Shown here: positions 1 through 23,503 of the stretch, in pieces | Numbering within the stretch: position 1 is the stretch's first letter | Layout of the letters: every line of letters starts with the position of its first letter | From: a virus | Taxonomy: Duplodnaviria; Caudoviricetes | Virus record (IMG/VR): IMGVR_UViG_3300033512_000651 | Coordinates: 1-24,374 of that record | Direction: 5' to 3' (one strand) | DNA: 24,374 nt | Program-made: the position numbers and the translations under genes | The notes under the pieces: model-generated | Databases searched by the model: none | What the model was told of the DNA's origin: nothing | The model's input: only the letters and a program-made list of their open reading frames with translations

Positions 1-2
1 CT

Positions 3-77
3 CAATGCGCAAATTGTATTGTAGCTTGTAGCAAACGCACTAAATTACCGGTAATTAATAAATTATTTTACAACTAA
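3..77 (+). CDS. 3' end of a possible upstream ORF (partial, ...QCANCIVACSKRTKLPVINKLFYN*)
   Basis: Open frame from the window edge to TAA at 75-77, same strand as downstream genes; too short to confirm. Confidence 0.3.
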   Translation, partial: QCANCIVACSKRTKLPVINKLFYN

Positions 78-168
78 ATTTTGTTTATGGGTGCATTGCA
101 GCCTTGCTGGACGGCGGGCTGCTTCACCCAAAACTTAAAAACCATTTTTAAAATTAGAGAAAGCGAAT

Positions 169-960: not shown

Positions 961-1531
961 TAAAATTACCGGGTTGGTAAAAATATGCCCAACTATTGGA
1001 GAATTTTGTTTAAAACGAAACCCTATGGAGTGTTTTAAAAAATACAGACACATCAAAACAGCTTTACAAGCCTTTGAAAGTGATGCTTATAAATTATCCG
1101 AAATAAAAAGTGCGTACGACCAAGATAGCGTTGAATTGTATATTGAAATTTGGGTGGAAAATTTAAACAGTGCCTTGAATTTAACACGAAAGTTAAACGC
1201 TGAGCAGCTTAAAGAAATAGCCTGTTTCATCTACGATGAGTTTTGTTTCTTAAACATAGCTGAATTATTGCTTGTTTTCAACAAAATTAAAAAAGGAGAA
1301 TATGGCGATTTTTATGGTGGTATTGATGTTTCTAAAATAATTACTTCATTTAGAACTTATTGTCAACAAAGAAACACTGAAATTCGACAAAAAGAATTTA
1401 ATAAAGGTGGGTATTCAATGGTCGAAAAAGTTAATATGTTGCATAAACTATTGGTTTCAAACTCTGACAAATGCCCAAGCTATATGAAATTAGTTGATAG
1501 CGTGAAAGTAACACCATTGAATAAAAATTAA
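926..1531 (+). CDS. Phage protein, DUF6633-like (possible helicase loader/inhibitor partner of the initiator)
   Basis: Overlaps the initiator stop; motif L..AELLLVF..IKKGEYG.FYG.ID...I...FR.Y typical of Bacteroidota phage proteins at this position. Confidence 0.6.
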   Translation: MQNQTSKLPAINKITGLVKICPTIGEFCLKRNPMECFKKYRHIKTALQAFESDAYKLSEIKSAYDQDSVELYIEIWVENLNSALNLTRKLNAEQLKEIACFIYDEFCFLNIAELLLVFNKIKKGEYGDFYGGIDVSKIITSFRTYCQQRNTEIRQKEFNKGGYSMVEKVNMLHKLLVSNSDKCPSYMKLVDSVKVTPLNKN

Positions 1532-1543
1532 ACATATATTTCG

Positions 1544-1927
1544 ATGAATGAAGAGCTAATACATAAAGATTTTCAAAGGCTAATAACAAAAACGGCATTA
1601 TCGTACGATGAAATAATTTATACAATTGATGGGCTTACAGGCATAAAAACAACTGTTATGAAACAGCATATACGTTGTGCACCTGTGGTACGTAGTCGCG
1701 ATTTATTTTTTTATTGTTCTTTTCAATTTTATCAAAATTTATCGGAAATAGGTAGATTTTTGGGTTTTGACCATGCAACTGTGCTATATTCGGTTAAAAA
1801 GGTAATAAACACGAACGATGGAAAGTATTTCGAAAAAGATATGAAAATGATTATGAATAAATTAATTGACTTAAATAATATTAAATTAAAATTTACACAC
1901 AATGAGAAAAAAAGATTATTTACCTGA
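1544..1927 (+). CDS. Stand-alone DnaA C-terminal-like (domain IV) helix-turn-helix protein
   Basis: R..VVRSR.LF.Y...LSEIGRFLGFDHATVLYSVKKV matches the DnaA signature (IG..FG.RDHTTV). Confidence 0.8.
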   Translation: MNEELIHKDFQRLITKTALSYDEIIYTIDGLTGIKTTVMKQHIRCAPVVRSRDLFFYCSFQFYQNLSEIGRFLGFDHATVLYSVKKVINTNDGKYFEKDMKMIMNKLIDLNNIKLKFTHNEKKRLFT

Positions 1928-2513
1928 AAATGTTGAATTTTTCAGTAAAGAGCATGAATTTGACATGCCAAAAGAATTGTTCGACGATTTAGCAGGCAAT
2001 GAAGATGCTATAAGAAATGCACTAAAAGATAATTTCGATTACGTGCAACTTGAACGAAAATTGCAAATTGAAAGATTAATGGATGATAGTGAACGTGAAG
2101 AACTTCGCAACGATTACAATGCCATTATGGAGAATCAAATTCCGGTGCTCGAAAGCAAACTTGCTGAAGTAACCGAATTGGCAAAGCGCATGGTAGCCGA
2201 TGCAAAAGCTTCGTTGCAAGCCGCCACAACCGAAGTACGCGACATGGTTTATGCCGTTCGCCGAAATCGTAAAGAATTTGTTACCGTTCCGGAAAAAACA
2301 TATCGCATTGCACACGACAAAAAGTATTATTATTACTCGCTTGTAAACAACCGTTGCAAGTTGTTTTATACCGAAGATATTCCTACGATAGAGCAAGGGC
2401 AACTATACGGTATTATAGCCCGAAATGAAGTTAGTAATAATGATTTATCGCGTACCGAAACCATTGACATTGGAACCGCAGTAGCGCCAAACAAATTAAA
2501 GGAAGCAATCTAA
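1902..2513 (+). CDS. Hypothetical phage protein with central coiled coil
   Basis: 203 aa ORF overlapping both neighbours; heptad-rich middle. Confidence 0.7.
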   Translation: MRKKDYLPENVEFFSKEHEFDMPKELFDDLAGNEDAIRNALKDNFDYVQLERKLQIERLMDDSEREELRNDYNAIMENQIPVLESKLAEVTELAKRMVADAKASLQAATTEVRDMVYAVRRNRKEFVTVPEKTYRIAHDKKYYYYSLVNNRCKLFYTEDIPTIEQGQLYGIIARNEVSNNDLSRTETIDIGTAVAPNKLKEAI

Positions 2514-2809
2514 TGAGAATCAAAGGACGTCCATCGGCATACATGAAATCGCTGCAAGAAGATACAAATTGGAATGAAGCCAAAATTCGCACCAGAAACC
2601 GCGATGGTCATAAGTGCGTAATTTGTTCAACGAAAACCAATTTAGATATTCATCACCTAACTTATTATGTGAATGGTATAAATATCCGCGGCAAGGAATT
2701 GAATTACTTGCATTGCCTAATTACTGTTTGCGCTTCGTGCCATACCGATATTCATAATGACGATGGACATCCTTTAAACCCAAAAAACTACATGAAAGTT
2801 AAACGTTAG
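2513..2809 (+). CDS. HNH endonuclease
   Basis: RDGHKCVIC...LDIHH...CLITVCASCHTDIH: CxxC, HH and CxxCH motifs; TAATG coupling to the upstream gene. Confidence 0.88.
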   Translation: MRIKGRPSAYMKSLQEDTNWNEAKIRTRNRDGHKCVICSTKTNLDIHHLTYYVNGINIRGKELNYLHCLITVCASCHTDIHNDDGHPLNPKNYMKVKR

Positions 2810-2840
2810 AAAATTAAAAGAAACCCATAAACAACACAAA

Positions 2841-4001
2841 ATGAAAAGGAATTACACAAATAAGCAATTGCATGAGCTTATTACAAAGCATTATTTAAGA
2901 CATCGCGAACATTTTAGTTGTATTTTAGAACGACAAGAACCAAAATTGACTGAAGACGATATTCTTGAATTAAAAAGAATTCTTAAAATACGAAGCCAAA
3001 GAAATGATTCTTATTTTTTAAATAATCGAAATAAATATTTAGAAAGAGCGCTTTCAAGTAAAATTAGCGCTCGTATTACCGCCGAATATAAAAGTAAATT
3101 TTTAGACAATCGCGATAATTTGTTTGACCGTATAACAAAAGATATTGATAAAAATTTTGATATTCATTATTGCAGATATGTTTCATATAACGATTATAAT
3201 GGATATACTTTATATTTTCCTTTCACACGAAAACTCGAAGTTATAGGTGGTGTATTAACAATTATCGGTAAAAAAATTGGAAATCATTTATACAAGTGCC
3301 ATTATATTGATAATAATCGCCACAAACCAAAAATAATTGAAGGCTACATTTACAGAGGTTATCATTTTGCCGAAACGCAAAAGAAATTAGTTACTTGCGA
3401 ATTTGTCAATCAAATTAAAAAGGAATTTCTTATTAGTGTAAAAGAATTAATAAAAACACTTGATGTAAAATCTAAAAAAGCAATTTTAAAACGATTAAAT
3501 ACAATTTTAGAACGTTTTGAAAAGCTAAAAAGCAAATACAAAACCTTAAACGATTTAAAAAAACAAAATGAAGTTTTTTTTAACGAAGCCAATTTAAATG
3601 TAAGGTCGCATATTTTTAATTTGTGCGATGAAATTTTAACCAACAGTTTCAAAACTCTTCCGATAGCAAGCGATTGGCACATCGCAAATGTTGTTTATTC
3701 GCAAGACAGAAAAAGGAGCGAATTGTGTCTTGATATTTTGAAAAAACGACTACATAAACTTGAAGCAATTAAAAAAGAATGGTTTTGTTTTAATGATTCC
3801 ATAAAAGTTGGTAATTGCTCAGTTGGTTCAACAGCTTTTATCGCCAATGTAATTGTTCCGTATTTCGAAAAAGAAGGTTACGGAAAAGTTGACGTCGAAA
3901 ATATTAAACACAACGTGTATTTTCATAGAACATTAGTTTCGGAATGGGCTAAAACAAACTATGCTTCTTACAATTTGAATAGAATGTTATTTGGTAATTA
4001 A
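2841..4001 (+). CDS. Hypothetical phage protein (basic, 386 aa)
   Basis: Long ORF with A-rich leader; no family recognised with confidence. Confidence 0.7.
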   Translation: MKRNYTNKQLHELITKHYLRHREHFSCILERQEPKLTEDDILELKRILKIRSQRNDSYFLNNRNKYLERALSSKISARITAEYKSKFLDNRDNLFDRITKDIDKNFDIHYCRYVSYNDYNGYTLYFPFTRKLEVIGGVLTIIGKKIGNHLYKCHYIDNNRHKPKIIEGYIYRGYHFAETQKKLVTCEFVNQIKKEFLISVKELIKTLDVKSKKAILKRLNTILERFEKLKSKYKTLNDLKKQNEVFFNEANLNVRSHIFNLCDEILTNSFKTLPIASDWHIANVVYSQDRKRSELCLDILKKRLHKLEAIKKEWFCFNDSIKVGNCSVGSTAFIANVIVPYFEKEGYGKVDVENIKHNVYFHRTLVSEWAKTNYASYNLNRMLFGN

Positions 4002-4013
4002 ATCAAAAAAACA

Positions 4014-4607
4014 ATGGAAAAGCTATTTTTATACGACTTGGAAACTACCGGCGTAAAGTATTGGAAAAACGGCATACATCAAATTGCCGGAATGATAATC
4101 ATTGATAACCAAATAACCGAACGTTTCAATTTTCATGTTTGCCCGAACGAAAGCGCAATAATTCAAGAAGATGCCCTGAAAATTTCAAATGTTACCAAGG
4201 AGCAAGTTTTGGAATACCCTAAAATGAATATTGTATATACGCAACTTATCGAATTGCTATCGAAATATGTAAACAAATTTGATAAAAGAGATAAATTTCA
4301 TTTAGTCGGGTATAATATCAACGCTTTCGATAATGCGTTTTTTCGTGCTTTTTTTGTGCAAAACAACGATAATTATTTTGGTTCATGGTTTTGGGCAGAT
4401 AGTATTGATTGCTATGTTTTAGCAAGCAATAAATTTAAAAATCTACGAGCTTCATTTGAAAACTTTCAACAAAGAACAGTTGCAAAACACGTACCTGATT
4501 TTATTTGTGAAAAAGGGAATAGTGAAATTTTAAATAATTATTGGGATGCTATCAAAGAAAAAAGAGGTTTAACGCCTTATCCTGAAGCTCCTTTCTGTTA
4601 TAAATAG
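4014..4607 (+). CDS. DnaQ-like DEDD 3'-5' exonuclease, C-terminus apparently replaced or truncated
   Basis: ExoI YDLETTG and ExoII VGYNINAFD present; the usual ExoIII H-x4-D motif is not evident after ...RTVAKH. Confidence 0.78.
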   Translation: MEKLFLYDLETTGVKYWKNGIHQIAGMIIIDNQITERFNFHVCPNESAIIQEDALKISNVTKEQVLEYPKMNIVYTQLIELLSKYVNKFDKRDKFHLVGYNINAFDNAFFRAFFVQNNDNYFGSWFWADSIDCYVLASNKFKNLRASFENFQQRTVAKHVPDFICEKGNSEILNNYWDAIKEKRGLTPYPEAPFCYK

Positions 4608-4657
4608 TTGCTAAAAAATACAAATAATAATTTATTAATAATTAAATATTTATAAAA

Positions 4658-5083
4658 ATGACAACAAAAGAATTAGCAAATTTATTAAATGGTCGTGAAT
4701 ACAATGTTGAAATGACCAATGAAGAAGAAAAGGCTGCTAAACAATATGGGTTAGTGGTTGTTTTTGGCGCAAGTGATGATTTAACAGAATTTCGTGGTGC
4801 TATCGATGACGAAAAAGGACATTATGAAGGTGGTAATATATATTTTACCAAAACCGGAAAAATAATAAATGCAGATGACGTTGATAGCGATGACGATAAT
4901 ATTCAAAACAAATGCAAACGATGTAAAAATGTTATTGAAGCGGTTTGGGATAAACAAGCAGAAAATGGTAATAAATATTCATGGCATTTTAAAACAAAAA
5001 TTCAGCATGAAACATTTGATATTATTGAAGATGGTGAATTTTATTGTCAAGGCATAGTCTTTTCGTTATCTGATTTGCAGTAA
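4658..5083 (+). CDS. Conserved hypothetical phage protein
   Basis: 141 aa; GLVVVFGASDDL.EF.GAI.DE and HETFDI.EDGE.YC.GIVF resemble a common phage hypothetical family. Confidence 0.75.
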   Translation: MTTKELANLLNGREYNVEMTNEEEKAAKQYGLVVVFGASDDLTEFRGAIDDEKGHYEGGNIYFTKTGKIINADDVDSDDDNIQNKCKRCKNVIEAVWDKQAENGNKYSWHFKTKIQHETFDIIEDGEFYCQGIVFSLSDLQ

Positions 5084-5153
5084 CCGCTAACGTTCAGGCG
5101 CTTTGCGCACATCGCGTTTTTTGTAACTGAACGCACATCGCTTGTTATAAGTA
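5083..5153 (-). repeat. attC-like site 1 (short, degenerate)
   Basis: accgcTAACg...tGTTAtaagta; internal inverted repeat cgttcag/ctgaacg (5091-5097/5127-5133) and direct repeat cgcacatcgc (5106-5115, 5132-5141). Confidence 0.6.
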
Positions 5154-5182
5154 GTTTTTTATTAATCATTTATTTTTTTATC

Positions 5183-5473
5183 ATGCTTAAAATAAAAATT
5201 GGGTCGGATGTATCAGATGCAATTCAACCTTTTAAAGTAAAATTAAAATCGAAACCAAAATATAAAGGGAAAATACGTGGTAATGGATTTTCTAAGGCAA
5301 AAGATGGAAAATGGGAATATCATAACATTATTGGAACTTGCAATTGGTATGCTGACAAAATAGGTGAAATTGTAGAAGTTTTACCATTTAATGAAAAATT
5401 CTATCGTGTAAATAATCCTTATGGTTGTGGATTCTATTTTATCCATAAAAACGATTGTGAAATTGTTTCATGA
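5183..5473 (+). CDS. Hypothetical protein (cassette 1)
   Basis: 96 aa ORF filling the space between sites 1 and 2; stop lies just before the site 2 core. Confidence 0.65.
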   Translation: MLKIKIGSDVSDAIQPFKVKLKSKPKYKGKIRGNGFSKAKDGKWEYHNIIGTCNWYADKIGEIVEVLPFNEKFYRVNNPYGCGFYFIHKNDCEIVS

Positions 5474-5474
5474 T

Positions 5475-5614
5475 TGCTTATAACGGAAATGTATATGCGT
5501 AGTTGCGGGATTTCAAGGCACTTACGTTTCAATTAAGTAAAATGTAATTTACTTGCACAATGTTTCAAGTTACCACGAATGCCCGCAATTATCGCATATA
5601 CAATGTTATAGCCA
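5475..5614 (-). repeat. attC-like site 2 (140 bp imperfect palindrome)
   Basis: tataac-ggaaa-tgtatatgcg-tagttgcggg ... cccgcaatta-t-cgcatataca-at-gttata: paired arms, asymmetric spacer, one extrahelical base. Confidence 0.85.
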
Positions 5615-5620
5615 TTTTTT

Positions 5621-6853
5621 TTATTTTTTTTGACATATCACAATATATTCCATTAACATAGTATTAACTGTTGCACCTGCTTTATTTGTTGGTGAATTTT
5701 TTGACGGCATTGTTTTATTACTAAGTAATCTTTCATAAGTTGTAATATGTTTAAATCCATTATTTTCAAATTTTTCTGCAATAAATTGGTCGGTTGGTAA
5801 TAATACGTTTTTTACAGTTCGATTACCAACTACGTAAATTGATAAACCTTTCTTTTTTATACTTTTTGATACTTTGTTAATTGAAGCATCCAAATCACGA
5901 TAAAATGCTGATACTTCATAACTTCGTTTTTCGTTATCTTTGTAAATTTCGTTTATATAGTCCGAAATCACACCATCTTTATAAACTTTTTTCTCAACTT
6001 TACCACCCATTAGCAAATTATCAATTTGTCTTGCATTATCAATATCAAGCCACTCGTTTGCAAAATTTGAAAATTGTCCGTAAGCAACTGTTGTTTTGCT
6101 ATCTCCATAAGGCGGACTTGTTAAAACTACATCAAAATATTCTGTTTTGGGTTCAAATTTTTTATATTCTATTGAAATATTTACGTTTTCTTTTAATTTC
6201 GGATAATAAATATATTGGTATGTTTCAATGACTTTTTTAAGTTTTGAAAAATATACGCCAAAAATATCGGGATTGAATTTTAACATTTCTTCCGGTTTCA
6301 TTCGGAAAAGTTTAAATTCACTATTTCGTGTATAAGAACATTCTCTAACTGTTTCGGCAAAAGGAATTAAAAATAAACGTCTTATGTTTTCGTCTTTTAT
6401 TTGATATAAAATATGTTTTAATGCTGTAAGATTTTTTATGATTTCTGTTGAATACCAAAATTCAATATTTTTAATCTTTGGGGGTTTTAGATTATTTAAG
6501 TTATCTTCTATTTTCAAAAACTCGTATAAATTGTTTCTTATGTTTTGATTTTCTTTATTAACCGCTTCCAAATCAATCTTTGTAAATTTTGCCTTTGAAA
6601 TTAGAACAGCAAAAGGGTTGATGTCAAAACCGACCATTTCATTTATGCCAACTTCCAAACCAGATGCAAATGAAGAACCTGAGCCACAATATGGGTCAAG
6701 CATACTTCCACTTTTTATATCAAATTCTTTTAAAATTTCAATACCGATTTGTGGTATCATTGTTGCCGGATACCTATGCAAATTTGGATATTTTGTTGAA
6801 TAGGATTGACCGGTAAAATCATATTTAGTGTTTCTTTCAACTTTGTATATCAT
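5621..6853 (-). CDS. N4-cytosine DNA methyltransferase, M.MvaI-like (alpha motif order), cassette 2
   Basis: HRYPATMIPQI, motif I DPYCGSG before motif IV TSPPY; coupled to the endonuclease gene by a 1-nt overlap. Confidence 0.9.
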   Translation of the reverse strand: MIYKVERNTKYDFTGQSYSTKYPNLHRYPATMIPQIGIEILKEFDIKSGSMLDPYCGSGSSFASGLEVGINEMVGFDINPFAVLISKAKFTKIDLEAVNKENQNIRNNLYEFLKIEDNLNNLKPPKIKNIEFWYSTEIIKNLTALKHILYQIKDENIRRLFLIPFAETVRECSYTRNSEFKLFRMKPEEMLKFNPDIFGVYFSKLKKVIETYQYIYYPKLKENVNISIEYKKFEPKTEYFDVVLTSPPYGDSKTTVAYGQFSNFANEWLDIDNARQIDNLLMGGKVEKKVYKDGVISDYINEIYKDNEKRSYEVSAFYRDLDASINKVSKSIKKKGLSIYVVGNRTVKNVLLPTDQFIAEKFENNGFKHITTYERLLSNKTMPSKNSPTNKAGATVNTMLMEYIVICQKK

Positions 6854-7533
6854 TATATATCAATAATTTCATTAAACAATCTTGGTAGTTTGTTTTCAAA
6901 AGTTCTAAATCCTGTTCCATGATTTCGTGCAGAAGTTCCTTTATCATGTAACCGTAAATCAACTAATATATCGCCTGTTTTAAATAAATCAGAAAGTAAT
7001 TCAGGTGTTGTTCCTTTCATTAATTGCGCTCTATAAAAATGAAAATACTCTTTCCCGTCTCTTTCTTCTGTCAAAGCAGAAACAAAAAGTAATGCAGGAA
7101 TTTTTTGTAAAAATCTTTCTGCAAGATTATCTAATCTCCACGTTGCAATTATTTCTCCGGAAGTATGTTGAACTGTAATTTTTTCTTTATCAACTGTTAA
7201 AAATAAACCTGCACTATTGGGTGTTAATGACATTGTGTAATACATTCCTAATCTGCCATTTTGGTCGTAACTTCCGTATTTTTTTATTGCGTCAAGTGGC
7301 GGCATTATCCATGCTTTATTGTTAAAGGTAAATAATGTAATCATACTATTCACACCGTCTCTATGTGCTTTTATTTCAATATTATCAATATCAGGAAGTG
7401 CAAAATTATTTTCGTCAAGTTCTAATGCTGTTTCAAAAGTATGTCCTATTCCTGTTGGACCTTTCCTTGTAGTCGGAATAAATCCACGTTCTTTCAATGA
7501 TTTGAATTTTGTTTTAAATTCTTCTAATGTCAT
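6853..7533 (-). CDS. MvaI/BcnI-family Type II restriction endonuclease, cassette 2
   Basis: RKGPTGIGHTFE..L...ENN...PD...IEIKA, ITLFT and RNHGTGFR motifs of the MvaI/BcnI family; adjacent MTase. Confidence 0.9.
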   Translation of the reverse strand: MTLEEFKTKFKSLKERGFIPTTRKGPTGIGHTFETALELDENNFALPDIDNIEIKAHRDGVNSMITLFTFNNKAWIMPPLDAIKKYGSYDQNGRLGMYYTMSLTPNSAGLFLTVDKEKITVQHTSGEIIATWRLDNLAERFLQKIPALLFVSALTEERDGKEYFHFYRAQLMKGTTPELLSDLFKTGDILVDLRLHDKGTSARNHGTGFRTFENKLPRLFNEIIDI

Positions 7534-7559
7534 AATCTTGTTAAAAATTTATTTTTCTG

Positions 7560-7588
7560 CAAATATAGTAAATTTATGTTCTATTCAA
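7560..7588 (-). promoter_or_regulatory. Putative Bacteroidota housekeeping promoter for the MvaI-like R-M operon
   Basis: Minus-strand TATATTTG (-7, 7567-7560) with TTG 18 nt upstream; 26 nt before the ATG at 7533. Confidence 0.55.
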
Positions 7589-7604
7589 TTCTGTTTGTTT
7601 TCAT

Positions 7605-7708
7605 TGGCTATAACGAAAAAAAATTGCTGGCGTTGCTTATTTTTAGCGCGTTGGCAATTTTGCGGGTCGGGAAAAATAAGCAATGACCAGCAATTTAATG
7701 TTAGCAAC
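7605..7708 (-). repeat. attC-like site 3 (104 bp imperfect palindrome)
   Basis: taac-gaaaaa-aaattgctgg-cgttgcttattttt ... aaaaataagcaatg-a-ccagcaattt-aat-gtta: same layout as site 2, with an extrahelical base after a 10-bp stem. Confidence 0.85.
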
Positions 7709-7737
7709 ATTTTATTTATCATTTGTTTATAATTTCA

Positions 7738-7815
7738 ATACAAAATTAGTTAATTATTTTTGTATTTTTTGACGAAAACACTTGCAAATACAAAATTAAA
7801 TGTTTATATTTGTAT
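7738..7815 (+). promoter_or_regulatory. Promoter with two operator-like palindromes ATACAAA-N14-TTTGTAT (cassette 3)
   Basis: Palindromes at 7738-7765 and 7788-7815; TTG (7782-7784), 20 nt, TATATTTG (7805-7812) fits the Bacteroidota -33/-7 consensus. Confidence 0.65.
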
Positions 7816-7850
7816 CAAATTAATAAATGTTTAATTTAATACTAAAAAAA

Positions 7851-8078
7851 ATGAATTACTTAGCAATCACAGAACAAGACTTCTTAAATAGATGGTCTTC
7901 ATCAGAACAAAAATTATTTGTATCTGAAATTATTTGGAAATCAGATTTTAATGATTTTCCTAATTTACAAACAAAACTTGAAAATTTATTTTTAGATAAA
8001 TCAATTTTTGTTATATCAAAAATCAATTTTCTTATAGTAATTGGAAGTAAACATATTATTGATTTTTTATACGAATAA
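7851..8078 (+). CDS. Small hypothetical protein (cassette 3; start 7851 preferred over 7827)
   Basis: ATG after an A-run downstream of the promoter; 2 nt gap to the next ORF. Confidence 0.5.
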   Translation: MNYLAITEQDFLNRWSSSEQKLFVSEIIWKSDFNDFPNLQTKLENLFLDKSIFVISKINFLIVIGSKHIIDFLYE

Positions 8079-8080
8079 TT

Positions 8081-8287
8081 ATGTTTACAGTTCAAAAAAT
8101 AGAAGATTGGACAGACTTAAAGAATTTCGGCAGTATTGCCGAAATTCTTAGGCATTATAACAACTTTAATGCTGATACGCTTTATGATTATTTTACACGT
8201 CAAAAATTATCCGAAGTTGAATATAAAGGGTATCGGATTTTAAAACGTGAATTAATCAAATCGAAGCGTTCAAAAAATAGTTGCTAA
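8081..8287 (+). CDS. Small basic protein, possibly DNA-binding (NUMOD1/HTH-like), cassette 3
   Basis: F.SIAE.....TLY..F.R.K....YKGY.I pattern; its TAA stop is the TAA of the site 4 core (gttgcTAAc). Confidence 0.55.
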   Translation: MFTVQKIEDWTDLKNFGSIAEILRHYNNFNADTLYDYFTRQKLSEVEYKGYRILKRELIKSKRSKNSC

Positions 8288-8438
8288 CGAAAAATAACAC
8301 ACGCCGTTGCTTTTTTTGTGGGCGTGTTAGCACAAATGTTTCAATTACTTACAAATGTTTCTTTCTTGCACAAAAGTATCAAATTTGCACTTCTGCCCAC
8401 AAAAAAAGCAATGGTCGTTGTGTTATATGTTATACGCT
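8280..8438 (-). repeat. attC-like site 4 (159 bp imperfect palindrome)
   Basis: taac-gaaaa-ataacacacgccgttgctttttttgtgggc ... gcccacaaaaaaagcaatggtcgttgtgttat-at-gtta with two extrahelical bases; loop shares gtttcaatta and cttgcacaa with site 2. Confidence 0.85.
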
Positions 8439-8537
8439 TTTTTATCATCTGTTTATCAAGTTATTATATCATTAACAAATTAATCATTTATCACATTATT
8501 TTGATTAACTATATTATTATTCAACTAATAAATAATA

Positions 8538-8560
8538 GTGGGTCGGCGAAGCCGACCACA
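8538..8560 (-). terminator. Intrinsic terminator after the Type IIG gene (possibly bidirectional)
   Basis: GC stem ggtcggc-gaa-gccgacc (8541-8557) just past the stop at 8564, with AT-rich tracts on both sides. Confidence 0.65.
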
Positions 8561-8563
8561 CTT

Positions 8564-11500
8564 TTATTTATTTTGTTTTTCAATTACTTCAATCTCACTA
8601 TCAACTATTCCATAAATTTTATAAACTATTTTATCAATTTCGTTTTCTAAATTTATTGTTTCTGTTTTATTTAATTTTTTGTCTAATATTTCATTTACCA
8701 ATTTTTCTATTTTTTTTATTGAATTCTTTTCTTTTGGAATGCAAATTGGTAATTCTCCAACACTTCGTGCCTGAATTTCAGAAAACACAGTCTTTGTAGA
8801 TTTGAACTTATTTACATAAATATAATTCATTAATTTTGAGTTCATAATTGCCAATAAATATTTAATGTTTAGAGTAACATTATTCTTTGAAGTTACAACA
8901 ACTAATGTATTTAGAGCAAAATACTGTTCGCTGTCATATGTAAAAATAAGGTTTGCTGAAACTCGTCTGAAAAATAATTTTTCTTTTGCTAAGAATATGT
9001 CTTTGGTTTTACAAGAATGGATTTTATTAACATCGTAGTCTAAGAATACATTATCCCAATTTATTGAATATTTTTGTATATTTCTACCGTCTAATAATTT
9101 ATAATATTTTCCTTCCGGATTATTGTCTTTTAACGATAACGATTTATCGCCTTTTAATGCAATAGCCTGATTTATATTGCATAATTCAGAAAGTTTTTGA
9201 AATTCATTTGTAAAAATCTTATCTATTAAAAGATTATCATTTAATGCGAAATTGAAATTTGGTTGCAAAATGAAATTTTGTTTTGATTTTTCAGAAATCG
9301 GCAATGTGTTAATTTCTGTCTGTTCAAATATTTGAATATTATAATTCTCTAAAATTCTATTTTTGATAATTATTGAAATATTTTCAACAACTGCTGTTTC
9401 AAATGGTAAAAATGGATATGTAATAATTTGTTGAATTTCAGATTTTTCAAGTATAAATTGTCTTGTAAATTGATAATACTCTTGTGATAATAAAGTATTT
9501 GGAATGATAAAACCTAACATTCCGTCTTTTTTAAGAAGATTAAAACTATTGTGAATAAAAAAGATAAAGGTATTTAATCTGCCTGCTGATGTTTTAAACT
9601 TTTCTAATAAGTATTTTTTATAAATATCTGATAAGTTTTCAGTTTTAGATAATTGAATATATGGCGGATTTCCAATTATAGCGTCAAAACCAATGAAATA
9701 ACCATTATCATCTAAAACTTCTGGAAACTCAAAACGCCACTCAAATGAATTGAAATAAATTTCTTTCCTTTTTTCTTCATATCTTTTTTCTAACTCAACT
9801 CTTTCTTTATTTAATCGCGTCAACTTCATACTCCATTGAGTTTGTTCATCTTTATTGAAAAACAATGGTGTACTTCCAATTTCCGCTTCAAGTTCTTTTA
9901 TTTTTTTAAAATCATCATCATTGGGTTTAACTACTCTACTAAAATATTCTTTACATTCTACAATAAATTTTTCAACAACTTGTTTTTCTTGTTTTGTTTG
10001 CGAGTTTTTATACTGTTCAACTTTTTCTTTATATTTTTGTGTGAATTGTTTTAATTTTTGTGATTGACCATTTGTTAATCCATTACCATTAAGCGTAAAA
10101 TGGCTTACTAATGAGTTTCCTGTTTTAATATTTATATCAATATTTGGTAAAGTTTCAAGATTTGTAAAATTACTTTCTTTTGTATAGAAAGAATTTTTAA
10201 GTAGCTCAATCCATAATCGTAAACGACAAATTTGAACAGATTTTGGGTTTATGTCCACTCCAAATAAACAGTTTTCTATTAAAATTCGTTTTTCTTTAAA
10301 AATTGTTTCTTGTATGCGTTGACTTTCTTTGTCCTTAAAATTATAGTTAAAAAATTGACCAAAATGATTTATAAATAATTCATCGTTTTGAACTTCACAA
10401 TATGTATTTCGCAATATTTGTCCTTCGCTATCTATTAAAATTCCAAGTTCAGATTTTATTGCAATTAGTTCATTTAAAGCTGAAACTAAAAAATGTCCAC
10501 TGCCAACCGCAGGGTCACAAATGCGAATAGAGTTAAATATTTCGTTTGCCTTTTCTATATCAATTTCAGAAATTTTATTATAAAGCTGTGGTTTTAAGTT
10601 GGTACAATTCCAATTATAAACAGTGTTGAATTTTTGAATTACAGTTTTACGTATTGTATCACGGCAAATATACATAGTAATAAAACCGGGTGTAAAAAAA
10701 CTACCTTCTTTATAACCATTAATTTTTTCAAAAAACAGACCTAAAACAGAAGAATTTATTACAGTTTTGTAATGTTCTTGAATTTCTAATTTATTATCGC
10801 TTGCAAAGTTATAGCTATCTAAAAATTCAAAGATATATTGTAATACAGGTAAATCACCGTTTTTTCTTTTACCTAAATTGTCTTTGAGTACGGTTAAGTT
10901 ATAAATTGGTAATGTAGTATTATGCTTTAAATGATTGACTTTTACTGTTTCTTTTTCAAGTGCTGTAAGTTCAAAAAGAGAACTATTTAGATACGGAACT
11001 TTTTCATATTTTGATTGTAAAGTTTTTTTTCTGTCTTCGGGTGTAACGGCAAGAATTTCAAAGAATATAATTTTTAATTCTTCAAAATCTTTAATTTTCT
11101 GATTGTTAAGAAATGCAAAATCGAAATTTTTACTATTATATTTTATTAATTGACTTTCGAGAAGTTTTAAAAATAAAATTCTATTCAACCAAGTAATACA
11201 CAATTCTAAACCAATACTAAATATTTGTTCTTCTTGCGTTTCACCAAAACGTTCCGGTTGTTCCAAATTTTGAAATATATCGTCTGTTTCGATAATTGAA
11301 ATAACATTTTCAAGCAAACTTCCTTCGTTTCGGTCTTGTATTTTAAGTCGTTCAATTTTTCGAGTATTATCTTTGGTTTCGTACAAACCGATAATATGAA
11401 GTAGTTCATTATAAAATTCACGATTTAAAGTATTGCTATCATTTTGAAATGGAAGTTTTAAAAGGTGTTCAGGTGAAAATATTTTGTATAATTCAATTAT

Positions 11501-12145
11501 TGTGTTTTCATTTTCGATTATGTTTTTAGATAATTGAAAATGTGTACAACTAATTTTTTCTTGACTTTCTTGTATAAATGGTTTTGCAATTACAGAATAA
11601 AACCAATCTTTGTTTTTACTTACTAATTGTTGATTTGTCCAATCATTATATTTTTTTAGGAATGATTTGTTTTGATAAAAAAGTCGTTCAAACTCGGAAG
11701 CATTAAAAATAAACCAATCAATTGAATTTGTAATAATTAAATGTTTAATCTCTAAATTATCATTAGTTACTCGTTCTTCTAAGTAATATTGTATAAGTTC
11801 CTGAAATGCTTTTTTATTTAATTCTTTGGTGGTAATCATCTCTGTTGATTTAATTGCTTTTGTTTCAACGATTACACCAATGTTATCGTTTTCTTCTTTT
11901 CCGTTGTAAATTACAAGGTCAATGTTATTTATATTTTCTTTTATTGTAAATTTGTTTTTATAGTATGTGTCACGAAAAAAAATATTAATATAATCTTTTA
12001 ATGTTTCTTCATTATCATTCTGTTTAATTGATTTTAATAAATTTGCATAGTTTTCTTTAAACGAAGATATTTCATCAATGAATGTGCTTTGAGCTAAATA
12101 AACTTTATTTACTGAATTATTTATATTTATAATTTCTAATTCCAT
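8564..12145 (-). CDS. Type IIG (Eco57I-like) fused restriction endonuclease / m6A methyltransferase with C-terminal TaqI-like specificity domain, cassette 4
   Basis: N-terminal PD-(D/E)xK-like IDLVI...IVETK...QE...YY; GSFFTP, CDPAVGSGHFL (motif I), GVDINP, IIGNPPY (motif IV); C-terminal YLLAIMNSKL...EIDKIVYKIYG. Confidence 0.92.
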   Translation of the reverse strand: MELEIININNSVNKVYLAQSTFIDEISSFKENYANLLKSIKQNDNEETLKDYINIFFRDTYYKNKFTIKENINNIDLVIYNGKEENDNIGVIVETKAIKSTEMITTKELNKKAFQELIQYYLEERVTNDNLEIKHLIITNSIDWFIFNASEFERLFYQNKSFLKKYNDWTNQQLVSKNKDWFYSVIAKPFIQESQEKISCTHFQLSKNIIENENTIIELYKIFSPEHLLKLPFQNDSNTLNREFYNELLHIIGLYETKDNTRKIERLKIQDRNEGSLLENVISIIETDDIFQNLEQPERFGETQEEQIFSIGLELCITWLNRILFLKLLESQLIKYNSKNFDFAFLNNQKIKDFEELKIIFFEILAVTPEDRKKTLQSKYEKVPYLNSSLFELTALEKETVKVNHLKHNTTLPIYNLTVLKDNLGKRKNGDLPVLQYIFEFLDSYNFASDNKLEIQEHYKTVINSSVLGLFFEKINGYKEGSFFTPGFITMYICRDTIRKTVIQKFNTVYNWNCTNLKPQLYNKISEIDIEKANEIFNSIRICDPAVGSGHFLVSALNELIAIKSELGILIDSEGQILRNTYCEVQNDELFINHFGQFFNYNFKDKESQRIQETIFKEKRILIENCLFGVDINPKSVQICRLRLWIELLKNSFYTKESNFTNLETLPNIDINIKTGNSLVSHFTLNGNGLTNGQSQKLKQFTQKYKEKVEQYKNSQTKQEKQVVEKFIVECKEYFSRVVKPNDDDFKKIKELEAEIGSTPLFFNKDEQTQWSMKLTRLNKERVELEKRYEEKRKEIYFNSFEWRFEFPEVLDDNGYFIGFDAIIGNPPYIQLSKTENLSDIYKKYLLEKFKTSAGRLNTFIFFIHNSFNLLKKDGMLGFIIPNTLLSQEYYQFTRQFILEKSEIQQIITYPFLPFETAVVENISIIIKNRILENYNIQIFEQTEINTLPISEKSKQNFILQPNFNFALNDNLLIDKIFTNEFQKLSELCNINQAIALKGDKSLSLKDNNPEGKYYKLLDGRNIQKYSINWDNVFLDYDVNKIHSCKTKDIFLAKEKLFFRRVSANLIFTYDSEQYFALNTLVVVTSKNNVTLNIKYLLAIMNSKLMNYIYVNKFKSTKTVFSEIQARSVGELPICIPKEKNSIKKIEKLVNEILDKKLNKTETINLENEIDKIVYKIYGIVDSEIEVIEKQNK

Positions 12146-12166
12146 TTATCGTTGTTTTATTTGCAG

Positions 12167-12174
12167 CAAAGTTA
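12167..12174 (-). promoter_or_regulatory. Putative -7 promoter element for the Type IIG gene
   Basis: Minus-strand TAACTTTG 21 nt upstream of the ATG at 12145; -33 element not clear. Confidence 0.45.
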
Positions 12175-12220
12175 ATAATTTTTATTCATTTTCATAGTTG
12201 CACAATTGTTGGTTTTTCAT

Positions 12221-12267
12221 AGCGTATAACATTTTAATTTACACACGTACAAATGTGCAGTATGTTA
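12221..12267 (-). other. Array-terminal recombination core (attI-like or secondary insertion site)
   Basis: agcgtataac (12221-12230) is the exact reverse complement of gttatacgct (8429-8438); followed by A rather than G and lacks a long hairpin. Confidence 0.55.
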
Positions 12268-12483
12268 ACAGAGAAACAAATACAAAACATTCATAAACTC
12301 GATGCACAAACGTGCAAAGCGATTATGCACGAATGTGCAGAGCGTTTAGGCGTTGTTTCTGTAAAAGAATTTTGCAAAATTTTGAATATGCCACGCCGCA
12401 CAGTATATGATTTTATGGAGCGTGGTAAAATTCAATATATTACTATTTCAGAACATAAATTTCCGATTATTAACGATAAATAA
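12262..12483 (+). CDS. Small HTH protein (excisionase/MerR-like)
   Basis: VSVKEFCKILNMPRRTVYDFMERGKI motif; alternative start at 12253. Confidence 0.7.
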   Translation: MLTEKQIQNIHKLDAQTCKAIMHECAERLGVVSVKEFCKILNMPRRTVYDFMERGKIQYITISEHKFPIINDK

Positions 12484-12492
12484 TTAATAAAT

Positions 12493-13158
12493 ATGCCATT
12501 AAATACATCAAAAGGAAACATGTATGATTTTATAACTCATACATGGAATACGGTAAAAGGGAAATGTGAACATGATTGTTTTTATTGCTACATGAAAAAA
12601 TTCAAAAATCAACGGGCATGTAGGTTTGACGAAAAAGAACTGAAAACCGATTTGGGTTCTGGCAACTTTATTTTTGTTGGCAGTTCAAATGATTTGTTTG
12701 CAAATAGTAATCCAGTCAATTGGATAGATGAAACTTTACTTCATTGTGCGCAATTCGATAACGATTATTTATTTCAATCGAAAAACCCGGCAAGGATACA
12801 AGAAATGACAAACTATTTGCCTTCAAAATCGGTTATTTGTACAACTATTGAAACGAATAGGTTCTATCCGGAGATAATGAATAATTCGCCAAAACCGTTA
12901 GAACGCGCAATGGCAATGAACGATTTGTCCACGGTTATGAAAACATTCGTTACTATTGAACCAATTATGGATTTTGATATTGCTGAAATGCTTGATTTAA
13001 TTTATCGTTGCCGACCAACTCAAGTTAACATCGGCGCTGATAGTTGCGGGTATAATTTGCCCGAACCTTCCAAAATAAAATTATTGTCTTTAATAGAAGA
13101 ATTAAAGAAGTTTACAACTATCCACAGAAAAACAAATTTAGCCAGATTGTTGAAATAG
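12493..13158 (+). CDS. DUF5131 / Gp37-Gp68-like radical SAM protein
   Basis: TWN...G.CEHDCFYCY (CxxxCxxC), IFVGS..DLF, FQSKNP.R and FVTIEP motifs. Confidence 0.82.
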   Translation: MPLNTSKGNMYDFITHTWNTVKGKCEHDCFYCYMKKFKNQRACRFDEKELKTDLGSGNFIFVGSSNDLFANSNPVNWIDETLLHCAQFDNDYLFQSKNPARIQEMTNYLPSKSVICTTIETNRFYPEIMNNSPKPLERAMAMNDLSTVMKTFVTIEPIMDFDIAEMLDLIYRCRPTQVNIGADSCGYNLPEPSKIKLLSLIEELKKFTTIHRKTNLARLLK

Positions 13159-13226
13159 AAATAAATTATTAATTTTGTGCATTATATATAAAATATATTG
13201 TTAACTATTGAGAAATTTTAATTTTT

Positions 13227-13454
13227 ATGGGAACGCAAATAATAAATAACAAACCTAAAAAAGAAAATGACGATAACATTAAACAAAAGATTTTAAATTA
13301 TTTAGAAGATTTAAAATCGCAAAAGGTTGAAGCAATGAAGGTATTCGAGTTGAATTTAGACAAATCGAATCCGGTAGTCCAAGCTGAAGAAATGATTTTA
13401 AAAAACAAAATCTGGCAAATACAGGAAATTAGCCAAGTAATAAAATTATTATAA
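13227..13454 (+). CDS. Hypothetical protein
   Basis: 75 aa helical ORF, 1 nt before the next start. Confidence 0.6.
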   Translation: MGTQIINNKPKKENDDNIKQKILNYLEDLKSQKVEAMKVFELNLDKSNPVVQAEEMILKNKIWQIQEISQVIKLL

Positions 13455-13455
13455 A

Positions 13456-13893
13456 ATGGGTAGGAGCAAAAAAGCTGATGATTATCTTAAAGTTCGACAA
13501 ATTCAAGAAGAATTTCTTAAAGGTAAAAATCAAACCGACATAGTATATCAATTATGCAATCAATGGAAAGTTTCCAAAGCAACTGCATATAGATATATTA
13601 TAAAAGCTCTCGAATTATTTAAAGAGCAAAGCATTGCAAAAATTGAACATAAAAAAGCCTATCATGTTCAAGCAAGAATGAAATTATTCGAAAAAGCTAT
13701 GGAAATAAATAAACCCAATCCAAAATTTGCTCTTGAAATTTTAATTGACTTAGCTAAAATAGAAGGCTTGTATGTCGAAAAAATTGATAACACGCATGTA
13801 ATAAAAGAACAAAGTTTGAATTTCACGTATGAGCAGCTTATGGATTTGAAATATGGCAAAGGAAAATGGCAAGAATTAGACAAGGTTACGTAA
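13456..13893 (+). CDS. Putative terminase small subunit
   Basis: N-terminal HTH (DIVYQLCNQWKVSKATAYRYI), AL..L..LAKI.GLY.EKI helical core; adjacent to terL. Confidence 0.6.
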   Translation: MGRSKKADDYLKVRQIQEEFLKGKNQTDIVYQLCNQWKVSKATAYRYIIKALELFKEQSIAKIEHKKAYHVQARMKLFEKAMEINKPNPKFALEILIDLAKIEGLYVEKIDNTHVIKEQSLNFTYEQLMDLKYGKGKWQELDKVT

Positions 13894-15276
13894 CCATTGA
13901 GCCGAGCCAGCCAAAACATCTGGCGCATCATCGTGTGTAACATCGCCATTAATCGGATAACTATACACATTTTGCATAAACTTAGCATAATCGCTCCCTT
14001 CTGATACATCGTCTCTGAAAACAAAATACTCCTTAATAAATTGAGTTTGAAATAAAATACGGCTACGTTTGTTCGCTGTATTCTTCACTGAACTAACAGA
14101 TGAAAATGTACATTCTTTTTGAATGTCATTTTTAAAAACTATTCCGGAACTGTTTGTTTCAATGCGTTCGTTTTCAATCCTGTATTTTTTTATCATTTCA
14201 ATACACGCTGGCATTGCATACTCATAACTTTCATCAGTAAAAATTGCATCAATCACATAAAATTTTGCTCCCGATTTTGCAATAAAAACTTTCGCGAAAT
14301 AATCGGTACCAAGCAATTTGGTATCAATATAACCAAATGTTCCTTCAATGGTAGAAAATATTTTATCGTCTGTTTTTGCGAGATAATAATTCTCCAAGTC
14401 CAGTTTAAATGTATCGTCAAACTTGAAAAACTTAAAATCTTTCGGATAAAAAGCCATACCCGATATTTCGGTTGGTTGCTGTTGGTATATCGAAAGAAAA
14501 ATAGCTTTTGATGTTATTTTCCGTAAATCAAGATAATATTCTGTGGTGTGAACTTCTTCACAAAAACTCTCATCGTTTTCGTCCAATGCCGAAATTATAA
14601 TTTGCTCATCGAAACCATTTCGTTTTGAAATAATTCCAATGGGATCTTTTTTCGACCAACGAGTGGAAATATGAATTTCGATGCAATTACCTTCCAACCT
14701 GCTTTTATGAGCCGATTCGAACCAACTACCAAGTTTATCAATAATGGTTTCCGATTGTGAATCTTCAAAGTTCTTAATGGGGTCGTCTAATATTGCCATA
14801 AGTGAAGCTCCAAATCCGGTGATTGAGCCTCCAACACCGGCGCAAAAGTAACTTACCTGTTTTGCAGTGGTTAAATTCCAACCCGAAACGGCGTGTTTGT
14901 CTATGCTTAATGCTACAGTTGGAAAAACTTTAATGAATTTTTCCGTTTTTATTAAATCCCTTGTATCGTAGCTTAGTTTTTCAGCTAAAGTTGCTGAGTA
15001 CGAATTTCGCATTATTGATTCTTCCGGAAACTTCCCAAGCATCCACGCGCAAAACAGCGATGTAATGTAAGATTTTCCAGCCCTTGGCGGTGTCGAAATT
15101 CCAATAGTGTATTTTTCACCATTGGCATATTTCATATAAGCACGTTGAAATAATTCTGCTATTTTTTTAAGATGTTTCTTCTTTTTGGTAAAGAATTTCT
15201 CATCCATAAAAAGGCAAAACTCATAAAAATTAATACGTGCTAATTCGATGTTTACAAACTCGTCAATTTTTACCAT
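13876..15276 (-). CDS. terL: Terminase large subunit (inverted relative to neighbours)
   Basis: Walker A PPRAGKS, GVGGSITGFGA, Walker B ILDDPIK, TRW..KD, YQQQP, C-terminal nuclease HDDAPD. Confidence 0.93.
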   Translation of the reverse strand: MVKIDEFVNIELARINFYEFCLFMDEKFFTKKKKHLKKIAELFQRAYMKYANGEKYTIGISTPPRAGKSYITSLFCAWMLGKFPEESIMRNSYSATLAEKLSYDTRDLIKTEKFIKVFPTVALSIDKHAVSGWNLTTAKQVSYFCAGVGGSITGFGASLMAILDDPIKNFEDSQSETIIDKLGSWFESAHKSRLEGNCIEIHISTRWSKKDPIGIISKRNGFDEQIIISALDENDESFCEEVHTTEYYLDLRKITSKAIFLSIYQQQPTEISGMAFYPKDFKFFKFDDTFKLDLENYYLAKTDDKIFSTIEGTFGYIDTKLLGTDYFAKVFIAKSGAKFYVIDAIFTDESYEYAMPACIEMIKKYRIENERIETNSSGIVFKNDIQKECTFSSVSSVKNTANKRSRILFQTQFIKEYFVFRDDVSEGSDYAKFMQNVYSYPINGDVTHDDAPDVLAGSAQWLRNLV

Positions 15277-15505
15277 CGTAAATTATCTTTTTTATTGTTG
15301 TCATACTTAGGTTGAATTCAACCGACAATTTAGCAATAAAATGAGCAATGGTATTCTCCTTGTCTCGTTTGTTCCCTTTTTTTAGCTCAATATTTTTTAT
15401 CCGCTCTTTAATTTCGTAGCGAATAATAATATTTTCTTTTTGAAAGTCGGTCAATGAATTATAAATAAATTCGACCGGAATTTGTGAAATTAATGTAGTC
15501 GCCAT
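15263..15505 (-). CDS. Small protein with C-terminal HTH (Mor-like regulator candidate); start 15505 preferred over 15565
   Basis: IAKLSVEFNLSMTTIKKIIY HTH pattern; overlaps the terL start; a promoter motif lies inside the longer ORF version. Confidence 0.6.
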   Translation of the reverse strand: MATTLISQIPVEFIYNSLTDFQKENIIIRYEIKERIKNIELKKGNKRDKENTIAHFIAKLSVEFNLSMTTIKKIIYDGKN

Positions 15506-15533
15506 GATTAAATTAATTTTTATAGTTACAAAA

Positions 15534-15603
15534 TTTGGTACAAAAGTATAAAATCTTTGGTACATTAATTTGAATTTTAATTGGTTGGTTATATTTAATT
15601 TTG
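15534..15603. promoter_or_regulatory. Divergent promoter region (terL operon versus portal operon)
   Basis: Minus-strand TACTTTTG (15548-15541), plus-strand TAATTTTG (15596-15603); direct repeat tttggtaca at 15534-15542 and 15556-15564. Confidence 0.55.
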
Positions 15604-15625
15604 CAATGTATGTAAATACTTGTGT

Positions 15626-16891
15626 ATGTTTGATTTTTTTAGAAAAAAGGAAATAAACTTAAAAGCTGCTACTTCTACAATGAGCACTATAATTGGTGGT
15701 AGCAATATTTATATTTACAATTATTTACAAAACGACTTAGAGCTTTTAAAAGCATTCAAAGATTGTCCGGAGCTTAATTATATAATTAGATACCGTGGTA
15801 AACTCATTAGCCGAGTAGGTTTTAAATTATACCAAAAAGATTCCAAAGGGAATGAAGTAGAAGTTATCAAACATCCAATTATTAATTTGCTTGATAAACC
15901 AAATCAATTTCAATCGTTTAATGAATGGTTCAGGCAGTTTTGGAGTTACAAAGATTTATTTGGAAATGCTTATATAAATGCAATGACTCCGACAGGTTTT
16001 AAAGAACCTTCCAATTTATTCAACTTACCCAGCCAATATACCAAATTAAAGATAGATAGTAGTTTAAAAGACTTCAGACTTTCAAAAGTAAATGGTTATC
16101 AGGTTTATTTTGGTGGTCAAAATTTAGAACCATCGCCAGAATCGGTGATGCACTCAAAGGAAGTTGTTTTGGATTTTGATAAAAATGGTCAACCGTTTGC
16201 GTATTCCATTGCAGCAACCAATGAAAAAGCAATAAATTCAATTTTAGCTAATTATAGTACAAAAGTATATTTGCTAACCGAAGGAACTATGATTGGTTTG
16301 CTTACCGGTTCGGGTAACGAATTTTCGCAGCCAAATCCAAAAAACGTTTCACTTTTTCAGGAACAATTAAAAAAGTACGGTTTGAAATCGAACCAATACA
16401 AAATAATGGCAACCGACCAACAATTGAAATATCAATCGGTTCGCAGCCCTTTGCAAGATTTGAATTTAATCGAAAACTTACGCGAAGATAGAATTACATT
16501 ATGTAATTCTTTTGGTGTACCATCAGTAATATTCGACAATTCCAGCGCTACTTTCACTAATAAAATTGAAGCAAATAAAGAATCATACACTAACGCCATT
16601 CCAGAAATAAATGATTTTTTTAACGATATAACAAACTTTTTAATGACGAAGTTTGGAGAAACCAGACAAACCATTATAAAAGCCGATTATTCAAATATCA
16701 GAGAATTACAAGATTCGTTAAATGAAAAGAGCGCCAGATTATTAGATGAGTATAAGCTCGGCTTAATATCAAAAGGAGAATATCGCGAGGCTATGGGAAA
16801 AGAAGTAGAGCAAAGCGACTACAAAGTTTATTATACTGCAAATACAAATGTACAAATTGATAATACGTTAAGCAATGTCACAACCAACTAA
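15626..16891 (+). CDS. Portal protein, HK97 family
   Basis: HPIINLL.KPN.FQS, L.GNAYI, LCNSFGVPS.IF...ATFTN, E.REAMG motifs; precedes protease and capsid. Confidence 0.9.
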   Translation: MFDFFRKKEINLKAATSTMSTIIGGSNIYIYNYLQNDLELLKAFKDCPELNYIIRYRGKLISRVGFKLYQKDSKGNEVEVIKHPIINLLDKPNQFQSFNEWFRQFWSYKDLFGNAYINAMTPTGFKEPSNLFNLPSQYTKLKIDSSLKDFRLSKVNGYQVYFGGQNLEPSPESVMHSKEVVLDFDKNGQPFAYSIAATNEKAINSILANYSTKVYLLTEGTMIGLLTGSGNEFSQPNPKNVSLFQEQLKKYGLKSNQYKIMATDQQLKYQSVRSPLQDLNLIENLREDRITLCNSFGVPSVIFDNSSATFTNKIEANKESYTNAIPEINDFFNDITNFLMTKFGETRQTIIKADYSNIRELQDSLNEKSARLLDEYKLGLISKGEYREAMGKEVEQSDYKVYYTANTNVQIDNTLSNVTTN

Positions 16892-17804: not shown

Positions 17805-17822
17805 TTAAAACTTTTCAAAAAA

Positions 17823-19349: not shown

Positions 19350-19359
19350 TTTTAATAAC

Positions 19360-19391: not shown

Positions 19392-19404
19392 AAAAACTAA
19401 TTTT

Positions 19405-21227: not shown

Positions 21228-21228
21228 T

Positions 21229-23501: not shown

Positions 23502-23503
23502 TT

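Follow-up and report, generated by a model that had tools for sequence, protein, structure and literature searches.

Introduction

The closest described relatives of the locus reported here are the integrons, whose integrase, IntI, carries a specific insertion that is held to be essential for integron function and is "not fully conserved" in an integron-like subgroup (PMC8138268). In Bacteroidota, integrons are regarded as rare (PMC9024848). Clusters of attC sites that have no integron-integrase (CALINs) are known from phages, 17 of them among 10,705 phage genomes and one in Polaribacter phage P12002L (PMC9892861). Insertion without attI, at a GWT site in the genome, the situation described by the terms attG and SALIN (a lone attC site that has no integron-integrase), has been shown for IntI enzymes in Proteobacteria (10.1101/2022.09.11.507474). 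The stretch analyzed here (the window) is the whole of IMG/VR virus record IMGVR_UViG_3300033512_000651 (Duplodnaviria; Caudoviricetes), a linear virus fragment of 24,374 nt estimated to be 23% complete. Between positions 5091 and 12229 it holds a feature that is real, works like an integron cassette array and lies outside the classical integrons on the features tested. It is probably a four-cassette array in a phage, loaded in trans by a XerA-like tyrosine recombinase of the host, as integron integrases do.

With integrons the locus shares the GTT/AAC cores, the folded bottom strand, the cassette-specific complementarity of the ends and a cargo of restriction-modification systems (PMC8946536, 10.1101/2024.07.02.601686); related arrays in G033, a genome reached through relatives of hairpin H1 of the window, and in other genomes likewise stand on one strand behind a tyrosine recombinase and an attI-like site. 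The differences are several. The linked recombinase lacks the IntI insertion and faces the array in 15 of 22 linked loci; in sites of the window type the spacers are offset by 3 nt, bulges vary or are absent, and the ends are complementary over 9-10 bp, against about 7 bp in classical sites; and the phage contig, a fragment, carries no enzyme. The IntI with its specific insertion that stands beside a classical array is missing here, as the fragment has no PF00589 match and the enzyme of the related arrays is insertion-less. The locus corresponds to a CALIN in having three hairpins (H1-H3) in one orientation with no integrase nearby. As in the phage CALINs, the cluster of attC-like sites carries methyltransferases (PMC9892861), and the geometry of site P12002L_attC1 equals that of the window type. 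The window differs from them in its whole restriction-modification systems with endonucleases and in its units of up to 3.9 kb, and PMC9892861 treated its sites as classical and, in the parts consulted, linked no other enzyme to them.

Insertion-less members may be present within the datasets of PMC8138268; a search of titles and the starts of abstracts, with few subscription journals covered, found no paper describing a Bacteroidota cassette system with an insertion-less enzyme. The matching of cassette ends is textbook integron biology and cassette clusters in phages have been published, so that neither is new. What the window adds is one cassette found in three settings, as near-identical copies that break off at the cores, and a phage that acquires complete restriction systems, as predicted from their genes.

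Matching Ends of the Cassettes

The two ends of each cassette body match each other as inverted sequences, at 5144-5153 / 5475-5484 in cassette 1 (9/10), 5605-5614 / 7605-7614 in cassette 2 (10/10), 7700-7708 / 8280-8288 in cassette 3 (9/9) and 8429-8438 / 12221-12230 in cassette 4 (10/10). A preliminary description of this DNA, which had taken these ends for the mark of integron-type cassettes, had all eight coordinates and sequences correct. By contrast, the 12 non-cognate pairings of ends in the window give matching runs of only 4-6 nt, and the two ends of a single hairpin match over 6, 4 and 4 nt in H1, H2 and H3, within the 4-6 nt first described. GTT/AAC cores and complementary ends specific to each cassette, as found in integrons, are therefore both present.

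The chance expectation was drawn from 47 distinct cassette end pairs of G033, which give 2162 non-cognate pairs. A full match of the six positions after GTT is found in 18 of these (0.8%), and 5/6 is reached in 126. The window cassettes score 5, 6, 6 and 6, for which chance is about 3e-8 if the cassettes are independent, and about 7e-5 if only units 2 and 3 are used, whose boundaries were both called as hairpins independently of the match; one non-cognate pair in the window attains 5/6. Upon circularization in silico at the GTT, the perfect stem grows from 6 to 10, 4 to 9 and 4 to 10 bp in units 2, 3 and 4, which is the 9-10 bp anticipated in the preliminary description, and from 4 to 8 bp in unit 1, which falls short of it.

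These data bear on the view that takes the hairpins for terminators or miniature repeats and the end matches for chance or target duplications. The matches are inverted, not direct, and are specific to each unit; the same rule holds in G033, where 77 of 82 bodies match 6/6 at their ends; and, as set out below, the similarity of cassette 2 to its copy ends at the two cores. This view can hardly be credited, even with the A+T-rich sequence, the shared bias of the flanks (seen in the non-cognate pair at 5/6) and the degenerate hairpin copies that are scattered in G001, the incomplete genome holding a relative of cassette 2.

Hairpin Geometry, Polarity and Unit Sizes

The sites that bound the cassettes are as follows, the fold z value comparing the real sequence with its shuffles.

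5088..5147, plus strand: H0, degenerate attC-like site of cassette 1 with TAAC..TGTTA ends; fold z -2.4; predicted crossover 5090/5091
5481..5608, plus strand (folded bottom strand): H1, 128-nt attC-like hairpin; fold z -5.6
7611..7703, plus strand: H2, 93-nt attC-like hairpin; fold z -8.7
8285..8432, plus strand: H3, 148-nt attC-like hairpin; fold z -6.9
12227..12267, minus strand: H4, array head; fold z -0.9; predicted crossover 12229/12230; overlaps the start of an excisionase-like gene (12253-12483)

H1-H3 are stable hairpins and belong to three different sequence types, while the outer sites, H0 and H4, are weak. Of 201 genomes from a single order, the one to which an Acetofilamentum sp. 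metagenome-assembled genome (MAG) belongs, 27 contain members of the sequence family of H1. No Rfam family reached its gathering score in the window, an E-value scan yielding sub-threshold matches only, and Flavo-1, considered as a candidate, gave no match. H4 was rejected as an attC site on account of its z value and of its right arm, which is the start of a gene. With a matrix built from 14 attI sites it scores -0.2 and ranks 34 among 1021 GTT sites; 4 of the 14 true sites score lower in a leave-one-out test.

The unpaired spacers of H1, H2 and H3 measure 5/2, 6/3 and 5/2, and 77 of the 83 sites of G033 have 5/2 spacers. Sites of the window type thus have a spacer offset of 3 and bulges at 11-14 from the R'' core, with none at 9. 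Classical sites, as read by eye from Table S3 of PMC9892861, have an offset of 0-1 and an extrahelical G nine bases from R'', a geometry that the window sites do not show. At least three sites of window-type geometry occur in Polaribacter phage P12002L, P12002L_attC1 being one. Of six phage sites, this one alone was not integrated by IntI1 (PMC9892861, section 3.4), a failure that fits a different enzyme. The three P12002L sites lie at 30009, 32224 and 38880 of NC_028924 (L291), near methyltransferase genes, and only the one at 30009 corresponds to one of the two sites tested in PMC9892861.

An ordinary CALIN, that is, classical attC cassettes moved by an IntI of the host, would agree with the GTT/AAC cores and with the TAACG..TGTTA asymmetry of classical bottom strands (PMC9892861, Table S3); phage CALINs are published (PMC9892861), and a few integrons exist in Bacteroidetes/Chlorobi (PMC9024848). 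The 3-nt offset, the position of the bulges and the failure with IntI1 of a site of this shape (PMC9892861) speak against it, as does the enzyme of the related arrays, described below.

H1-H3 all read TAACG..TGTTA on the plus strand, like the classical bottom strands in Table S3 of PMC9892861; the top strand of the array is therefore the minus strand, and cassette 4 comes first. Three tests agree on the polarity. In G033 the recombinase and the first cassette lie at the start of the top strand. The hairpin on the R'' side differs less among cassette copies in that genome than the hairpin on the other side, with a mean of 1.2 against 22.3 differences for a 12-copy cassette and 0.7 against 4.9 for a 6-copy cassette, four other clusters being near-equal on both sides. 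Finally, an A at +8 is found in 56 of 56 foreign cassette starts and in all four high-coordinate ends of the window. The mobile units are therefore 393, 2130, 674 and 3942 bp long. The core-to-core lengths of about 0.3, 2.0, 0.6 and 3.8 kb that had been given for four circular units are those of the bodies, to which each circle adds the hairpin on its low-coordinate side; the sizes are corrected accordingly, and the integron-type nature of the units stands, supported by the matching ends and by homologues that break at the cores. The possibility that cassettes 1 and 3 are inverted bodies was rejected, as their end polarity is that of the array.

Recurrence of the Cassettes with Other Neighbors

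The same cassettes were sought beside other neighbors, as the preliminary description had proposed, and were found for both ends of cassette 2 and for one end of cassette 4, with breaks at the cores. Four genome loci were found for the cassette 2 methyltransferase. One of them, L001, aligns with 5606-7619 of the window at 88.8% identity and has a different hairpin arm upstream of the core. At its other core a repeated element, lying on the bottom strand, has come between hairpin and body and displaces the hairpin. Another study's sequencing run, X5, includes a single 2074-nt contig that spans 5602-7614, shows 43 differences from the window (98% identity) and has foreign sequence beyond both cores. 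Homology of cassette 2 thus stops at both cores, and no flanks are shared well beyond them, which would have told against separate insertion. L011, one of two metagenome loci for cassette 4 (64% amino acid identity), shares 13 nt from the core, where its homology begins, and its upstream flank is different, non-hairpin chromosomal DNA. Moreover, metagenome contigs depart from the window at H3 (8286, 8432) and at H1 (5482), which is what one would expect if, in the community, the same hairpins also border other cassettes.

The repeated element of L001 has 8 matches in G001, and TA and a cassette-like end follow each of the 7 ends listed. Its position at the inverse core of cassette 2, between hairpin and body, is that of group IIC-attC introns (PMC3001079); it differs from them in that Rfam did not call it an intron, its copies being cut at contig ends. 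Judged by ends of the domain V/VI type, it is a candidate for such an intron. In G001 the end of cassette 2 also occurs behind other genes (L037:7481-7542, L282), and therefore ends are reused with different cargo. Hairpins of the H1 family adjoin a 416-aa open reading frame (ORF) read as a putative reverse transcriptase (L055:228-1639) and the end of a group II intron (L060:1337-1614; Rfam RF00029 above the gathering score).

Recombinase-Headed Arrays in Other Genomes

G033 carries 83 sites on one strand in 77 kb, one of them of the H1 sequence family, and the array ends at a recombinase gene that faces it. Judged from its sequence, this enzyme is a XerA-like tyrosine recombinase without the IntI insertion: it passes NF040815 with 242 bits (cut-off 220), fails the integron integrase model TIGR02249 with 178 bits (cut-off 265) and has 20 residues where IntI4 (2a3v) has 63. 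It also has a long N-terminal extension. The array (G033:C1:466140-545148; L113, L114, L081, L115, L116) is sedentary and contains many copies of a cassette of about 375 bp without a long ORF.

Homologues of the recombinase were found in 50 of 151 genomes of the phylum, and the flanks of the 29 best-scoring other loci were examined. All 29 show the short spacing that denotes the lack of the IntI insertion, and 22 have an oriented site within 6 kb, downstream in 15 and upstream in 7. Adjacent bodies match at 5/6 or better in 31 of 38 cases over 36 loci, and a GTT shortly after the recombinase gene matches the far end of the first cassette in 13 of the 19 loci with downstream sites. The background of the site finder, one site per 328 kb, is to be taken as a floor (17 loci chosen after viewing, with L265, which has one 47-nt match, excluded). 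The window sites share with these recombinase-headed arrays the sequence family, the geometry of the 3-nt offset and the A at +8. Among cultured phage records the recombinase has no close match, the best being 38%.

No IntI above the TIGR02249 cut-off was detected in any of the 9 genomes tested, and the large array of G033 is headed by an insertion-less enzyme. Together with the site geometry, these results make an origin of the array from classical cassettes and a host IntI very unlikely.

Should these cassettes be shuffled by an insertion-less enzyme, then current detectors overlook a large pool of cassettes, and there is a second structural solution to hairpin recombination. H1-H3, the attI set and one enzyme are ready substrates for a direct assay.

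Proposed Insertion into the Phage Genome

In the proposed mechanism, the folded plus strand would be cut at AA|C. The excised circle would consist of the body and the hairpin on its low-coordinate side, with an outer stem fully paired over 8-10 bp; integration would split this stem, so that each end of the cassette retains one of its halves. The first insertion would have taken place at a GTT between two co-oriented phage genes, with later cassettes stacked at the 12230 end. When the array is excised in silico, the crossover has a stop codon 7 nt to its left and a start codon 23-32 nt to its right, leaving an ordinary gap of 30-39 nt between co-oriented phage genes. This normal gap suits insertion at a secondary GWT site, as for IntI, and insertion of that kind without attI (10.1101/2022.09.11.507474) would explain both H4 and the lone cassette of L011. 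The host probably belongs to the Bacteroidota, because the closest genomic copy of cassette 2 is in the Acetofilamentum sp. MAG and relatives of H1 occur in the same order. That the four cassettes entered this phage one by one is an inference, since the analysis turned up neither an integrase nor a clear attI, and neither a relative with an empty site nor a joint left by excision.

Several observations weigh against loading in trans by such an enzyme. There is no tyrosine recombinase on the contig (no PF00589 match on a record estimated to be 23% complete), and it is possible that one is encoded elsewhere in the phage genome. The link between enzyme and sites is one of adjacency; NF040815 is unspecific, passing a Xer-like protein of 29% identity in G001 and proteins in 4 of 14 control genomes, and in G001 itself, an incomplete genome, nothing closely homologous to the recombinase was seen. 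Neither is H4 a clear attI, and the failure with IntI1 concerns a single site. Neither viral scans, blastn against phage records nor the phage loci reached through flanking genes revealed a relative with an empty site or a different cassette order, and no precise excision or empty-site joint is among the joints listed for five runs, which come from contigs, a form that drops rare variants. A joint between 5621 and 7598 in run X1 was not counted as an excision, as both ends are kept, one side is 27 nt long and the interior is not covered. Among the homologues, the methyltransferases of L002-L004 (68-75% nucleotide identity) align inside the gene only, and the far end of L011 is lost. Lastly, where H1 would be expected to travel with cassette 2, the X5 copy carries a different hairpin arm. 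Of its two arms only 21 and 30 letters are visible, on one contig, and by eye they are partly complementary to each other; the foreign arm may represent a hairpin replacement. At 2-3 mismatches its motif matched 11 of 301 genomes, a number not exceeding that of a reversed control.

A wider proposal, doubtful at present, is that the Bacteroidota run a phylum-wide second class of integrons, in which an insertion-less XerA-like enzyme would read its own hairpin geometry, supply phages with whole restriction systems in trans, exchange at both cores and refit a body with a new hairpin upon a change of host. Under this proposal the X5 copy, 98% identical and bearing a foreign arm on either side, would have been refitted in this way, and if so the origin of the attC sites of cassettes becomes directly testable.

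An alternative to stepwise loading is that the cassettes are real and came into the phage together, copied from a host array through homologous or illegitimate recombination, or that they remain after the loss of a recombinase and attI of the phage's own. H0 is degenerate, and the DNA to its left resembles the start of one more cassette, fitting both the start consensus and the A at +8. Nearby, a DnaQ-like exonuclease gene (4014-4607) ceases to resemble four homologues at about residue 160 and is missing the last motif that they conserve, likely by deletion or fusion. The flank and the local deletion indicated by the cut gene therefore allow for the capture of a block or the decay of a longer array. 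The right border, however, falls exactly at the core with no host DNA; removal of the array leaves the ordinary gap between co-oriented phage genes; the left-flank gene (4658-5083) belongs to the PHROG phage genes, and its homologue is free of cassette ends; and the hairpins are of three different sequence types. On balance, entry as a block is unlikely, and loading of the cassettes by a host recombinase remains the preferred reading. A contig of run X2 spans the point at which the exonuclease diverges.

Through two flanking genes (51-69% identity) 86 phage loci were reached, none of which has an array; one match of the site finder occurs in 16 of them and two in none. Viral scans for the left-flank gene, the portal, the ORFs of cassettes 1 and 3 and the H1 motif gave no matches, nor did blastn of 5000-8600 against 50,697 phage records.

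Cassette Cargo

The units and the genes predicted on them are listed below.

5091..5483, minus strand: cassette 1 (393 bp; body 5144-5484), with a 96-aa ORF at 5183-5473 on the plus strand, antisense to the array
5484..7613, minus strand: cassette 2 (2130 bp; body 5605-7614), a type II restriction-modification pair
5621..6853, minus strand: type II DNA methyltransferase, 410 aa (PADLOC MTase_II, E 2e-99; DPYCGSGS and SPPY motifs)
6853..7533, minus strand: MvaI/BcnI-family restriction endonuclease, 226 aa (PF15515, E 4e-39; PADLOC REase_II)
7614..8287, minus strand: cassette 3 (674 bp; body 7700-8288), with ORFs at 7851-8078 and 8081-8287 on the plus strand, antisense to the array
8288..12229, minus strand: cassette 4 (3942 bp; body 8429-12230), first in the array
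8564..12145, minus strand: type IIG restriction enzyme-methyltransferase fusion, 1193 aa (PADLOC REase_MTase_IIG, E 4e-223; Eco57I, TaqI_C, DUF7149, DUF7814)

The endonuclease and methyltransferase frames are intact and match their family profiles, and cassettes 2 and 4 are accordingly predicted to carry complete restriction-modification systems. Their methylation would protect the phage DNA, and competing DNA would be restricted in the lysogen. The ORFs of cassettes 1 and 3 have no match in Pfam, NCBIfam, PADLOC or PHROG and no viral relative; the 75-aa ORF of cassette 3 matches only itself among proteins of similar length, and the second ORF of this cassette has its stop codon within the core. 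TAnnTTTG motifs, which we take to be promoter-like, precede cassettes 2-4 and number 54 in the window, a weak signal.

In the backbone (1-5090 and 12230-24374), no other of 31 five-base palindromes is as strongly depleted as CCWGG, for which 1 was observed against 6.0 expected. MvaI cleaves CCWGG, and the endonuclease of cassette 2 is predicted at the level of the MvaI/BcnI family. GATC is strongly avoided in the same backbone, with 3 observed against 35 expected.

Other Features of the Phage Record

By profile matches, the backbone encodes a replication initiator, an HNH nuclease, a terminase, a portal, a protease and a capsid. The large subunit of the terminase and a 100-aa neighbor (13876-15565) lie on the minus strand among genes on the plus strand, whereas the terminase shares the strand of the exonuclease in 26 of 26 related loci. 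Contigs of run X1, which is possibly the source run of the window itself, span both junctions of this block without a mismatch, and its borders show no clear inverted repeat. A methyltransferase and a glycosyltransferase (19405-21227) immediately follow the capsid gene.

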